Notes: a model not told the origin generated them from the sequence alone. Shown: positions 11,201-13,260, counted from the stretch's first letter. The stretch is DNA of 64,000 bases from a bacterium (GCA_024277675.1 JAJRUS010000007.1:4254-68253), one strand, 5' to 3'. A program made the numbers and translations.

Positions 11201-11814
11201 GGGTTTATACGGGCAATAGCACCTCCAACCAGGTTTATGGTGATTACCGTGACCCGAACGAATTTGGCAGCGGCAGCAGTTATTACGGCAATACCAGTGC
11301 CGCTGGTGGGGGGCTGATACGCATCGTAGCCAATAGCCTGACCCTGGATGGAACAATTAACGCTAACGGCAATACATCCACCTATGGCGGCGGTGGATCG
11401 GGCGGTGGCATCCGACTGGATGTAGGCAGCTTATCCGGCGTAGGTTCCATCAACGCTATAGGTGCTGATGGTAGCGGCCGGGGCGGCGGCGGCGGTGGAC
11501 GTATTGCGGTGTATTATACCGACAACAGTGGATTTACCGGCAGTATCATCGCTAACGGCGGCAAAGGTTACTCTTCAGGATACCTGGGTTACGGCGGAGC
11601 GGGTACGATTTATCTAAAATCCACCACACAAACGCACGGTGATTTGATGGTAGATAATATCGGTCAATGGACGGCTGATTATTCCACCCCGTTACAATCT
11701 ATAGATTCAGGGGTATCGGACAGCATCATCTACAGCCCCATCATAAACCAGAGCATACTCACTGATGCAAATGCCAACTGGCCGTTGCCGGATACAGCCA
11801 CCGGTGCATCATGA
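5284..11814 (+). CDS. Secreted Rhs/YD-repeat polymorphic toxin, N-terminal segment (signal peptide, Ig-like domains, CarboxypepD_reg-like domain, Cys/Pro/Asp-rich linker, YD-repeat block 1, Gly-rich modules 1-2). It ends at an in-frame TGA.
   Basis: An RBS (AGGAGA) precedes the start and the N-terminus is a Sec signal (MKRTIVSTILILLSGSLVVTSVAGA). YD repeats of the form YxYDAxGNL run over 8200-9660. The segment is in the same frame as the next ORF, and the 31 codons between the TGA and the next ATG continue the repeat (LIGLELNPNNIQSQTYTVVNNTATTITVTGD). Confidence 0.85.
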   Translation: MKRTIVSTILILLSGSLVVTSVAGAVCEMKTDYTPGVACASSTVVVNNDAELDAYLADFGFNGNKYQNLKLNYDVTRANIDIHSPCKITLKDNVILSGDSICLDGRNGVVDDNGYTANAAQLSVLSELGDAHFGRGSVINANELTLSAWKKAKIGINSQVNVTGAVKLVSSGDLASSDAIIRQGSTVNADSLLVQAPRGATLGLSTDINVSGKVSVISTGSYTGSLAKIKQGAAVSANNLDLISDNKAALGLSTVIAAADNFTMQAASPDKCSIAGSASINAGSTWGNCLQPLVVDITSPAAGSLTNSPTISVSGTVTDLNASVTVNDIPATVANTGFSVDNVPLSEGPNTITATATDPAGNTSAHSINITLDTIIPDIGISSPANGSTIDSNLPLVIMDYSDAGAGIDSGSFQASINGVDYTASFTVTATQASYQLIAPLPEGANTVTAGISDLAGNSASTTSSFTVSIAPQATESSGFIHGQVFDVQTKLPIEGAVVTVAGIGGNILSDLEGKFVFPTPGTGIYKLKITKDGYNYNQRLAEVVSTRDTTVAPAYLLAIDTTDMVIASQGASLTNSTGDLQVDIPPDSLPYDAEVHLTLITEPEQLPSPLPDGYAFINFFYGEPSVQFDPPATVRFYNRLGFEPGATLTIVFWNRQELVWEERGMAWVTEDGQWIQGDWPSFSSGGITIRPIYPEVPCPDPNDPDCPPCDPNDPNCGEECVPGDPDCPDSCLNPGFAGSGFVSTNYALPSINALGASSGLRLTYNSNAAYPTVSIPAIVYPRGTFAITPDSINIAIEAGGESIEKKFAYNNQVSRQTYLHTPRVAVDGQTKWFASGTYPYNVKISNDYKRNEYAVIIYSIFNGVPFEPVRTATYVIEDKPVSYSREVSGRYAVVNHIASPFGSGWTIQGLSRLHFDPNDPGGNISTVMLDEGSGNFRVYTLVENTPITSEAVYTSQAGDFSTLMRHSDGSYTRKMHKGGMVYNYNHQGLLTSKVDSNGNTTNYIYDAQGLLIRIENAIGGATNFSYDANGHISDIQDAAGRVTQFNVDTFGNLVSITAPDGNATSYAYDANHLLTTEQNPRGASTQYVYDNYGRLKQTISPAGATEQLYPDYTNGLINELPGNGTLATHFNFSDVESRAVNALGQTKTVKTNTKGFVIQKTDALGNITSYERNCACGAPTKITYPNGRVVTMTYDANGNLLTRTEEATGAATTYTYEPDFNQVASITDPRGNVTQMTYDANGNLIQTTDALGNITSMSYNAQGQLTHITNALNETTIFSYNPATGNLLSITDPLGNATSYTYDAAGNLLTSTDAEGHITSYTYDAMNRLLRVTDSNNNTTNYEYDATGNLIKVTDAKGQITQFAYNEDNMLVSATNPLGYTRIYSYDANRNLVSTTDAESQTINYAYDALNRLIQKTLPDNSTTDYRYDEAGNLLNIYAPRTLIVMEYDLLGRLKSSSTLVNTRDDEFANYVSLPANTVISSNDTSYDNTDILIVDGAVITIDGTHTFKNIAIINGGKLTHSAGSHLDITADAVLIDSTSSIDMSGRGYAPGYTLGNSAIGASLYGAGGSYGGVGGIYSPTGSVSNDVYGDYRNPNELGSGSSYYGNTGAAGGGLVRIVANSLTLDGTINANGNTSTYGGGGSGGGIRLDVGTMSGVGSINALGGNGGNRGGGGGGRIALYYTADMAGFTGSISAYGGTGNYGHGGAGTVYMKSTAQAYGDLIVANNGKNTADYSTPLRTIGFGYSDSIIYSPASGQSTLSDATAAWPQPDAAMGALGLIGLELNPNTIQSQTYTVANNTATTIIVDGNITSVATSGDAYIGEYTFDNLYVRGKARLSTEDDIYVLGTIEVDNASLKANALNFPDSNQLQAINGIIEVSGPLFEGHANVILDGDSLTVNSITGVDSLALTNGAVLKSFYLAPLEISVADLTIDSTSSIDVSGQGYAGGYTLGNTTDGASLYGAGGSYGGRGGVYTGNSTSNQVYGDYRDPNEFGSGSSYYGNTSAAGGGLIRIVANSLTLDGTINANGNTSTYGGGGSGGGIRLDVGSLSGVGSINAIGADGSGRGGGGGGRIAVYYTDNSGFTGSIIANGGKGYSSGYLGYGGAGTIYLKSTTQTHGDLMVDNIGQWTADYSTPLQSIDSGVSDSIIYSPIINQSILTDANANWPLPDTATGAS

Positions 11815-13260
11815 CTTATAGGGCTGGAGCTAAACCCCAACAACATCCAATCTCAAACCTATACCGTAGTAAACAATACCGCCACCACTATAACCGTAAC
11901 TGGTGACATGACCTTGGTGGCGGCTTCAGGCGATACATATATTGGTGAATATACTTTTGATAATTTGTATCTCAGTGGCTGGGCCAGGGTTTCTACTGAG
12001 GATAATATCCATGTATTGGGAGTGTTGGAGCTTAATAATGCATATTTAAAAGCCAATGCAGTTAAGCCTGCGGAGGGCGCTACCCTGCAATTCCCCAATG
12101 CTGTTTTTGAGGTAGCTGAGCCGTTGTTCGAGGGCAGCGTTAATGTAGTTCTGGATGGGGCTACACTTACCGTAAACAATATCGGCGGCATGGATAACTT
12201 ACAACTGCTTAATAGTTCCATTCTTAAAGGGTTCGCACTTACACCGCTTGAGATAACCGCAGACAGTATAACTATAGATGCGGGAAGCAGCGTTGATATG
12301 AGCGGCCGGGGCTATGCCGGGGGGTATACCTTAGGTAATACTACTGATGGGGCCAGTTTATCCGGCGCCGGCGGTAGTTATGGCGGCCGGGGCGGGGTTT
12401 ATACGGGCAATAGCGCCTCCGATCAAGTATATGGTGATTATCGCAATCCTAATGAATTTGGCAGCGGCAGCAGTTATTACGGCAATACCGGCGCTGCCGG
12501 TGGAGGCTTGGTACGCATAGTAGCCAACAGCATGATTCTCGATGGTACGCTTCAGGCCAATGGCAATACTTCGCAGTATGGCGGGGGTGGTTCCGGCGGA
12601 GGTATCCGGCTGGATGTAGATACCTTATCCGGCATGGGTTCCATCGAGGCGTTGGGGGCCAGCGGCAGTGGTCGTGGCGGTGGCGGCGGCGGTCGGATTG
12701 CAGTTTATTATACCGACAAGAGCGGCTATAGCGGCAGCATTAACGCCTATGGCGGTACAGGTTATGCTTCCGGATATCTTGGCTATGGCGGAGCGGGTAC
12801 AGTATATCTAAAATCAGCCACACAAGGCTATGGCAACTTAATATGTGACAATAACGGTCGCAACACCGCCGGCTATTCCACTCCGCTGCGGGCGATTGGC
12901 GCAGGCGTATCAGACAGCATCGTATATAGTCCCACCACCGGACAAAGCATACTTACCAATGCAAGCGCCACCTGGCCCATACCGGATGCAACCACCGGCG
13001 CCCTGGGGCTTATCGGCTTGGAAGTTAATCCCAACACCATCTATACCCAAACCTTCACGGTAGTAGACAACACTGCCACTACTATTACTGTAAACGGTGA
13101 CATGAGCTTAGTAGCTACCGCCGGCGACAGCTATATAGGAGAATACCGTTTTAACGGCCTGTCGGTAGTAAACGGGGCACAAGTGTCTACCGATGATAAT
13201 ATATACTTTGATACGCTGGATACTACCGGCGGGGTGTTGAATGCCAACAATTTCTACCAG
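9720..13260 (+). repeat. Intragenic tandem repeat, about 3.3 copies of a 1191-nt (397-aa) Gly-rich module
   Basis: The motif SGDxYIGEYTFDNLY recurs at about 10745, 11935 and 13125. Blocks of the form GYAGGYTLGNTTDGASL(Y/S)GAGGSYGGRGG...GGGGSGGGIRLDV...GGGGGGRIA recur with the same period and with high nucleotide identity. Confidence 0.7.

Follow-up and report, generated by a model that had tools for sequence, protein, structure and literature searches.

A single in-frame TGA in a giant Rhs/YD toxin gene of an uncultured bacterium

Within a 64,000-nucleotide stretch of a bacterial contig (GCA_024277675.1, JAJRUS010000007.1:4254-68253; the window, whose own positions are used throughout), two large open reading frames (ORFs) follow one another in the same frame, and between them they encode the parts of an Rhs/YD polymorphic toxin. 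The locus raises the question of what the TGA at their junction represents: the end of the first of two genuine genes, a codon that the cell is able to decode, a break in what used to be one gene, or a fault in the deposited sequence. The evidence set out below favours a break, and the giant accessory Rhs/YD gene (5284-15264) probably carries a recent and genuine nonsense allele.

One frame, one internal stop

The TGA occupies 11812-11814 on the + strand, in the same frame as the ATG at 5284 and as the ORF downstream (positions 11800-11819 read ACC GGT GCA TCA TGA CTT AT). Translation of 5284-15264 gives 3,327 codons, the last of them the terminal TAA at 15262-15264, with exactly one internal stop, at codon 2177; the TGA is the sole interruption of the 3,326-codon frame. 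In the ORF list the two parts appear as 5284..11814 (2,176 aa) and 11908..15264 (1,118 aa), both in that one frame. The first-pass annotation of this DNA had described them as ORFs of 2,176 and 1,118 codons in a common frame. The common frame stands, while the second figure needs correction: the open frame restarts directly at 11815 and runs for 1,149 codons, and 1,118 is the count from the first in-frame ATG, at 11908, which is also where the source record begins its 1,118-aa protein (P0193). The window was scanned in all six frames for single stops lying between two open stretches of at least 120 codons each, and besides the TGA site the scan returned one off-frame artefact and four places where unrelated genes adjoin. 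Around 11812-11814 the open stretches are 2,185 and 1,149 codons long, which cannot be a product of chance. With a single frame and one internal stop in 3,327 codons, the earlier description of one gene cut by an in-frame TGA is upheld.

Homology joins the two parts as firmly as the frame does. Both contain RHS/YD repeats, which Pfam finds as PF05593 (RHS_repeat) in 15 stretches of the first half (E 5e-92) and 4 stretches of the second (E 5e-25); the first half also has Big_13/Glucodextran_B immunoglobulin-like (Ig-like) and CarboxypepD_reg-like domains, and begins with a hydrophobic Sec-type signal peptide (MKRTIVSTILILLSGSLVVTSVAGA), a judgement made by eye only. When the repeat blocks (Table 1) are compared by phmmer with the solved Rhs shells, block 1 matches residues 605-810 of 7q97, 482-925 of 8qjc and 418-526 of 8h8a, and block 2 matches 989-1116/1152 of 8h8a, 1474-1843/1879 of 8qja and 839-1029/1065 of 8qjd, as well as 7q97, which places it on the last ~130-370 residues of these shells. 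Because block 1 corresponds to the middle of the shell and block 2 to its C-terminal end, the two ORFs are, on sequence evidence, halves of one Rhs/YD polymorphic toxin cocoon that is split by an insert of ~1,300 residues. Block 2 closes with NPINYIDPMGL (DPMGL at 14806-14820), which has the PxxxxDPxGL form of a predicted autoproteolysis motif. A Pfam search of the tip that follows (14821..15264) gave no match at E <= 1, and tip and core together are 58% conserved in another protein (P0194). Core motif and tip are encoded after the TGA, and the translation has its signal peptide in the first half only. As the first-pass annotation had argued, an N-terminal product would therefore lack the core and the toxin, and a C-terminal product would lack a signal peptide.

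Two homologues found in an exhaustive profile-free search show how such a gene looks when it is whole. The larger (P0053; 3,185 aa, a single ORF) aligns by BLASTP with residues 959-2257 and 1883-3201 of the fused translation at 39% identity, and so covers the junction; the smaller (P0062; 1,744 aa) is likewise a single ORF with the same layout and contains one repeat unit of the kind described below. Since both share the layout as single ORFs, the native form is taken to be one polypeptide. The gene in the window has the repeats and the core motif of the Rhs family, but is not a single uninterrupted polypeptide. Because it stops at codon 2177, where P0053 and P0062 continue, it is classed among the Rhs/YD polymorphic toxins as a disrupted member.

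The altered glycine codon

Between the two RHS blocks lie three tandem repeat units with a period of exactly 398 codons, and the TGA falls within the second of them. Compared in pairs, the units have 70-83% DNA identity, a synonymous divergence (dS) above 1, and a ratio of nonsynonymous to synonymous divergence (dN/dS) of 0.14-0.24, and are therefore old duplicates that have been held under purifying selection. An AlphaFold2 (AF2) model of unit 1 is of high quality (predicted local distance difference test, pLDDT, 93.5; predicted template modelling score, pTM, 0.92) and consists of a beta-helix and a small beta-rich domain. The glycine equivalent to the TGA is residue 286 of this model, in a connector that leads into the first strand of the C-terminal beta-rich part. 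The unit has no Pfam match, and a Foldseek comparison of the model with the PDB gave no significant match.

At the junction, unit 1 reads GGT GCG TTG GGG TTA ATC GGT and unit 3 reads GGC GCC CTG GGG CTT ATC GGC, while unit 2 has GGT GCA TCA TGA CTT ATA GGG. The site belongs to a motif of the form tGxxGLxGLxLNPN, and both sister units read GALGLIGLE where unit 2 has TGA in place of Gly. Among the motif-bearing copies of the unit in other proteins, 33/34 have Gly at this column, the exception being Glu in P0025; this figure applies to the copies that retain the motif; across the family at large, copies often lack the loop or align poorly over it, and only 71/172 have Gly. The substitution of TGA for a GGN glycine codon, which the first-pass annotation had noted against one paralogous unit, is thus confirmed by both sister units (GGG in each) and by the motif-bearing homologues. 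A further change, visible in the same peptide comparison and left without comment there, affects the preceding codon, which encodes Leu in the sister units and Ser in unit 2. Motif-bearing homologues nearly always have L, I, V, A or P at this position, and never Ser. The step from Leu-Gly to Ser-stop takes at least two nucleotide changes from a plausible ancestor (e.g. TTA GGA to TCA TGA). Of all the single-step routes by which codons of the Rhs gene could become TGA, GGA to TGA makes up 57/223 (26%), so that a stop in place of Gly is unremarkable; it is the expected product of a GGA to TGA mutation and no sign of recoding.

Apart from the stop, unit 2 is in good order. Deviations were counted as departures from the majority residue at columns conserved at 90% or 80% within the family; for units 1, 2 and 3 the counts are 0, 0 and 0 at the 90% threshold and 0, 1 and 2 at 80%, with none beyond the stop column. 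The core motif and the membrane protein gene downstream are also intact. As to how the change was made, a templated mutation was considered and rejected, as the local 10- to 15-mers have no second copy in the sequence except for two chance 10-mers.

The ~398-aa glycine-rich module has a wider distribution, occurring in 1 to >10 copies in giant proteins (3,000-7,500 aa) of many uncultured bacteria, and looks like an undescribed domain family. In the present gene the array is inserted within the Rhs cocoon, and it occupies the same place in the single-ORF homologues, with one copy in P0062 and about two in P0053. This architecture, a YD cocoon with one to three unannotated beta-helix modules inserted, is the more unusual by-product of the analysis and is separate from the TGA finding.

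Explanations for the TGA

The sequence of events that best fits these observations would begin with a local mutation in the second of the three inserted units, at the connector that joins its beta-helix to its small beta domain, where Leu-Gly (probably TTA GGA) became Ser-stop (TCA TGA). Translation from the sole credible start, the ATG at 5284 with AGGAG upstream, would then halt at codon 2177 and release a fragment bearing the signal peptide and about two thirds of the cocoon, without core or toxin. The 1,149 codons downstream would be silent apart from background readthrough. Because this second half lacks its own signal peptide and promoter, and is not preceded by a good ribosome-binding site, toxin delivery would be lost, or cut to the level of full-length protein produced by unprogrammed near-cognate readthrough at a weak TGA-C. 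The full-length protein of ~350 kDa, with Trp at the connector, might conceivably be made in trace amounts, and the allele might in that case be hypomorphic and not null; retention of the immunity-like gene would be expected either way. We infer that the TGA is real in the cell, that it arose recently, and that it affects the function of the gene.

Several points weigh against this account. The TGA is known from a single NCBI contig of 69,361 nt, and both ORFs form singleton clusters among ~15 billion proteins. The 3.4 kb after the stop are fully open and undecayed, which suits a very recent event, an error, or continued translation equally well. A single point mutation would not usually alter two neighbouring codons (Leu to Ser, Gly to stop), and the pair of changes needs either a multi-nucleotide event or a local problem in the consensus. 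Finally, the weakness of TGA-C, which the E. coli work of Poole, Brown and Tate from 1995 is said to have identified as the weakest termination context, may make the allele hypomorphic instead of null.

Even so, a recent nonsense mutation or pseudogene is the best supported of the three explanations that the first-pass annotation had put forward, the others being a base-calling error and a readthrough or phase-variable switch: the ancestral residue is Gly, recoding signals are absent, and there is no decay elsewhere in the gene. The prior for disruption is also high, since broken rhs genes are frequent in the genera that have been studied well. In Ralstonia 132/294 Rhs sequences, and in Xanthomonas 79/604, have been classed as pseudogenes on the grounds of length and N-terminal truncation (bioRxiv 10.1101/2025.05.08.652813), and Serratia has rhs fragments with premature stops and frameshifts (PMC2935791). 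For annotation, the consequence is that the called proteins of 2,176 and 1,118 aa belong in a single entry, marked as an interrupted Rhs toxin gene. The importance of a nonsense-disrupted accessory rhs gene is mainly annotational, and of little wider interest.

The local consensus problem mentioned above could be the whole explanation if an error of sequencing, polishing or consensus calling had placed the TGA in the deposited contig only, the real gene being intact with Ser-Gly or Leu-Gly at the site. This is unlikely, though it deserves more weight than any form of decoding. It is consistent with the TGA being the only interruption of a gene in 64 kb, with the flawless remainder of the ~10-kb Rhs gene, and with a sequence that has a single public source and no orthologue spanning the site; two mismatches in the space of 3 bp could reflect poor sequence quality at this spot, and in other assemblies related giant repeat genes show obvious breaks, from frameshifts that may be artefactual (as in contig L001, described below). 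However, the site lies outside any homopolymer or simple repeat, and the other 42 long ORFs of the window contain no frameshift or stop that would hint at a noisy assembly. The bases that distinguish unit 2 (C, A, T and A) are found in neither sister unit, which means that paralogous reads mapped to the wrong unit are not the cause.

If the TGA is real, it could still be translated. The form of this idea with most to recommend it, although very unlikely, is a programmed or regulated readthrough in which a leaky TGA-C sets the ratio of truncated secreted protein to full-length toxin. TGA-C is reportedly the leakiest context in E. coli. The frame after the TGA is wholly intact, and the stop appears, from the model, to lie between two domains, in a connector that might accept a different residue. 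In E. coli, basal readthrough of UGA is already ~2-4%, and a background level of a few per cent is on record for reporters and for the native nudL stop (PMC10570021). Set against this, there is no stimulatory structure, as the minimum free energy (MFE) of 11790-11900 is -13.2 kcal/mol against a shuffled mean of -15.6 kcal/mol (z = +0.88); Rfam gave no match in 11600-12100 at E <= 10, and none at gathering scores across the window. The stop is conserved in neither sister unit nor any homologue, C as the fourth base is a 1-in-4 coincidence, and near-cognate readthrough would insert Trp instead of the conserved Gly. On readthrough, the peptide spanning the junction would read GAS-W/G-LIGLELNPNNIQSQ. 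A more specific version, slightly harder still to credit, has TGA-C maintained as a leaky terminator, so that the cell would make mostly a 2,176-aa secreted beta-helix/partial-YD surface protein together with a small, condition-dependent fraction of full-length toxin. Regulated readthrough, if true, would make this a rare case of a bacterial chromosomal gene in which readthrough sets the dose of a polymorphic toxin; nothing here indicates it. Reversal by a phase-variable (contingency) switch, reverting at high frequency, is barely credible. Three paralogous units could in principle supply a sense codon through gene conversion, but their dS above 1 speaks against recent conversion, and within 300 nt on each side the ungapped identity of the site to the sister units is 61-65%, with a longest exact run of 17 nt. 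No simple-sequence repeat is present, the longest homopolymer near the site being 4 nt, and neither inverted repeats nor recombinase genes flank the TGA. The readthrough or phase-variable switch proposed in the first-pass annotation thus finds no support, whether in the predicted fold, Rfam, local repeats, sister-unit identity or conservation of the stop.

Equally hard to believe is that the TGA is recoded as Gly (by genetic code 25 or a suppressor tRNA) or as selenocysteine, or is bypassed by a programmed frameshift, even though it sits exactly at a conserved Gly column. The 43 long ORFs of the window contain one in-frame TGA in 18,497 codons, while the Rhs gene alone has 388 GGN Gly codons and the ORF set 1,486 Gly. 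These ORFs end in TAA (23), TGA (11, or 10 besides the N-terminal Rhs ORF) and TAG (9), and in ArnB, ArnC, ArnD and a histidine kinase the TGA comes within a few residues of the C-terminal end of the NCBIfam profile; one ORF pair has an ATGA stop-start overlap at 32023-32026. The window uses the standard genetic code: with a single in-frame TGA and TGA in service as a terminator, codes 25 and 4 are excluded, in agreement with the first-pass annotation, which had judged code 25 unlikely. The window contains no tRNA gene. Selenocysteine is opposed by the homologues, which carry Gly and not Cys, and by the absence of any hairpin resembling a selenocysteine insertion sequence (SECIS) 3' of the TGA, both in the 111-nt fold from 11790 and in Rfam. 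A frameshift offers no way round the stop, as the +1 frame (GAC TTA TAG) terminates after two codons, and the -1 frame (ATG ACT TAT ...) ends ~30 codons on and never rejoins the main frame. The ATG at 11811 that overlaps the stop (ATGA) was considered as a restart and rejected, opening only an out-of-frame ORF of ~30 codons.

The two ORFs could instead be a functional pair, analogous to TcB/TcC, in which the second half is made from the ATG at 11908 or by reinitiation and assembles with the first. The gene caller behind the source record accepted this ATG, and in Tc toxins a YD cocoon can be built from two polypeptides, but such a split is a very slim prospect here. The ATG is 96 nt past the stop, with only GGTGAC upstream at very short spacing, and a search of 11300-12300 for a promoter-like site on the + strand found none. 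Only the first half has a signal peptide and would be Sec-targeted, so the halves would occupy different compartments. Moreover, the break lies inside an inserted repeat unit and not between the halves of the cocoon, and the homologues are single ORFs. A recent nonsense allele remains the preferred account of the locus.

Genomic setting and known systems

The features of the locus are collected in Table 1.

Table 1. Features of the interrupted Rhs gene and of the genes directly downstream (window coordinates).
Feature	Coordinates	Strand	Basis and remarks
N-terminal Rhs part, 2,176 codons	5284..11811	+	ORF list, translation, Pfam; signal peptide, Ig-like, CarboxypepD_reg-like, RHS block 1, unit 1, most of unit 2
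RHS/YD block 1, N-terminal and middle cocoon	7459..9723	+	Matches middle of solved Rhs shells; BLASTP collinear with P0062 and P0053
Repeat unit 1, 394 aa, glycine-rich beta-helix then small beta-rich domain	9763..10944	+	Repeat analysis, AF2 model
Repeat unit 2, 398 codons	10945..12138	+	TGA is its codon 290; otherwise no deviation at family-conserved columns (90% threshold)
In-frame TGA, next base C (TGA-C)	11812..11814	+	Replaces conserved Gly of GALG/LIGLE; preceding codon TCA (Ser), Leu in sister units
C-terminal continuation, 1,149 codons and TAA	11815..15264	+	Translation, Pfam; end of unit 2, unit 3, linker, RHS block 2, core motif, tip
First in-frame ATG after the stop	11908..11910	+	ORF start in source record; only GGTGAC upstream, a partial Shine-Dalgarno at very short spacing
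Repeat unit 3, 398 aa, intact	12139..13332	+	Repeat comparison; GALGLIGLE at homologous site
RHS/YD block 2 and Rhs core	13630..14820	+	Matches C-terminal ends of solved shells; ends NPINYIDPMGL
C-terminal tip, 147 aa, strongly hydrophobic, presumed toxin domain	14821..15264	+	Translation; without known family
Multi-pass membrane protein, 278 aa, presumed immunity protein, intact	15290..16126	+	Directly downstream of Rhs gene
HTH_3 (XRE-type) protein	16253..16624	+	Pfam; 65% identical to L084 counterpart, same layout in L085; moves with cassette

The end of the Rhs gene and the two genes after it form a cassette of Rhs tip, small downstream ORF and XRE-type helix-turn-helix (HTH) gene, at 14821-16624 in the window, which recurs in two metagenome contigs of JGI 3300038380 (L084, 36-3425; L085, 25-2832), both of which end within the Rhs gene. 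Relative to the window, L084 has 58% identity in the Rhs C-terminus, 53% in the membrane protein and 65% in the HTH protein, while the middle ORF of the L085 cassette encodes a distinct 148-aa protein. With the C-terminal 686 aa as query, the only matches were the window's own protein (100%) and, after it, fragments of 58-65% identity at contig edges. Searches with a piece spanning the junction found nothing in the scan of genome contigs, only one relative, at 40%, among metagenome contigs, and a best identity of 59% by word index, with no close relative across the TGA.

The nearest genome is a metagenome-assembled genome (MAG), Dive96_bin10.231, with a GuaA protein 87% identical; the next best are at 66% (Nitrospirota and Deltaproteobacteria MAGs). 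Positions 2505-5249 of the window are collinear with 4170-7094 of a contig of this MAG (L003) through guaA, a small ORF and a terminator-like hairpin, at ~79-82% nucleotide identity. Past the terminator-like element, Dive96_bin10.231 has a YVTN beta-propeller gene where the window has Rhs, which indicates that the Rhs gene is an accessory insertion and that the slot it occupies is variable. A 99-aa ORF between guaA and the Rhs gene (4416-4715) matches the EutN/CcmL microcompartment vertex protein (E 1.7e-26); it has no further microcompartment genes around it, and lies in a region that is conserved in L003. A DnaC/IstB-like AAA ATPase gene at the window edge (98-892), ~4 kb upstream of the Rhs gene and resembling the IS21 helper with scores below curated cut-offs, may be left over from a mobile element. 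Further along, the window has an arnB-arnC-arnA-arnD-like operon for lipid A aminoarabinose modification (53819-58841, - strand; strong equivalog matches) and XrtA/PEP-CTERM-associated genes for an ATPase and an amidotransferase (23796-25508 and 40302-42302). Taken together, the two sets of genes point to a diderm host that has an exopolysaccharide/PEP-CTERM system.

A related beta-helix giant gene on a metagenome contig from the European Nucleotide Archive (ENA) is also broken (L001, 2591-13640). It is called as ORFs of 995, 520 and 2,164 aa, being split by frameshifts in near-identical repeats, and the upstream ORFs each end with the same out-of-frame tail, ...GGDWCRLRRARRRW.... The frameshifts, which have no relation to the TGA in the window, probably stem from errors of assembly or in homopolymers, or else from real decay. 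The contig was considered as a parallel case and rejected, as its frameshifts lie inside near-identical repeats of an unrelated, non-Rhs protein; breakage of this kind is no evidence for a shared mechanism.

Among known systems, leaky UGA in E. coli, where near-cognate Trp-tRNA competes with RF2 (PMC10570021), shares with the present gene a UGA stop, here followed by C. It is, however, unprogrammed noise in another organism, and selection for leakiness is unsupported at the window site. The locus does not show the hallmarks of programmed readthrough, of selenocysteine insertion or of an alternative code, nor does it have those of a contingency locus or a TcB/TcC split. With the solved Rhs/YD cocoons (7q97, 8h8a, 8qja-d, Tse5 8cp6, Tse15 8uxt) it shares the YD/RHS repeats, the DPxGL core, a tip that is presumably the variable toxin domain and an immunity-like gene downstream, but it differs in having a Sec signal peptide and Ig-like domains instead of a PAAR/VgrG-linked N-terminus, ~1,300 residues (three ~398-aa units and a linker) inserted between the blocks, and a broken frame. 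The insert itself has a likeness in the TcB/TcC and teneurin shells, which are also YD cocoons bearing a large inserted domain, and teneurin is among the structure matches of the blocks. The YD shells of TcB and teneurin tolerate a large foreign domain, and the Tc cocoon consists of two polypeptides. In the Tc toxins, however, the two genes have separate starts and their products are not directed to Sec, while here the stop is inside an inserted unit and initiation signals are absent. The disrupted rhs genes of Enterobacteriaceae and plant pathogens (PMC2935791; bioRxiv 10.1101/2025.05.08.652813) are likewise accessory toxin genes with a premature stop in which the tip and an immunity-like gene are kept. 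In contrast to these, the present gene has no N-terminal truncation, insertion sequence (IS) or displaced orphan tip, but a single stop in an otherwise undecayed 10-kb gene, and its host belongs to an uncultured lineage, with GuaA only 66% identical to that of the second-closest sequenced genome.

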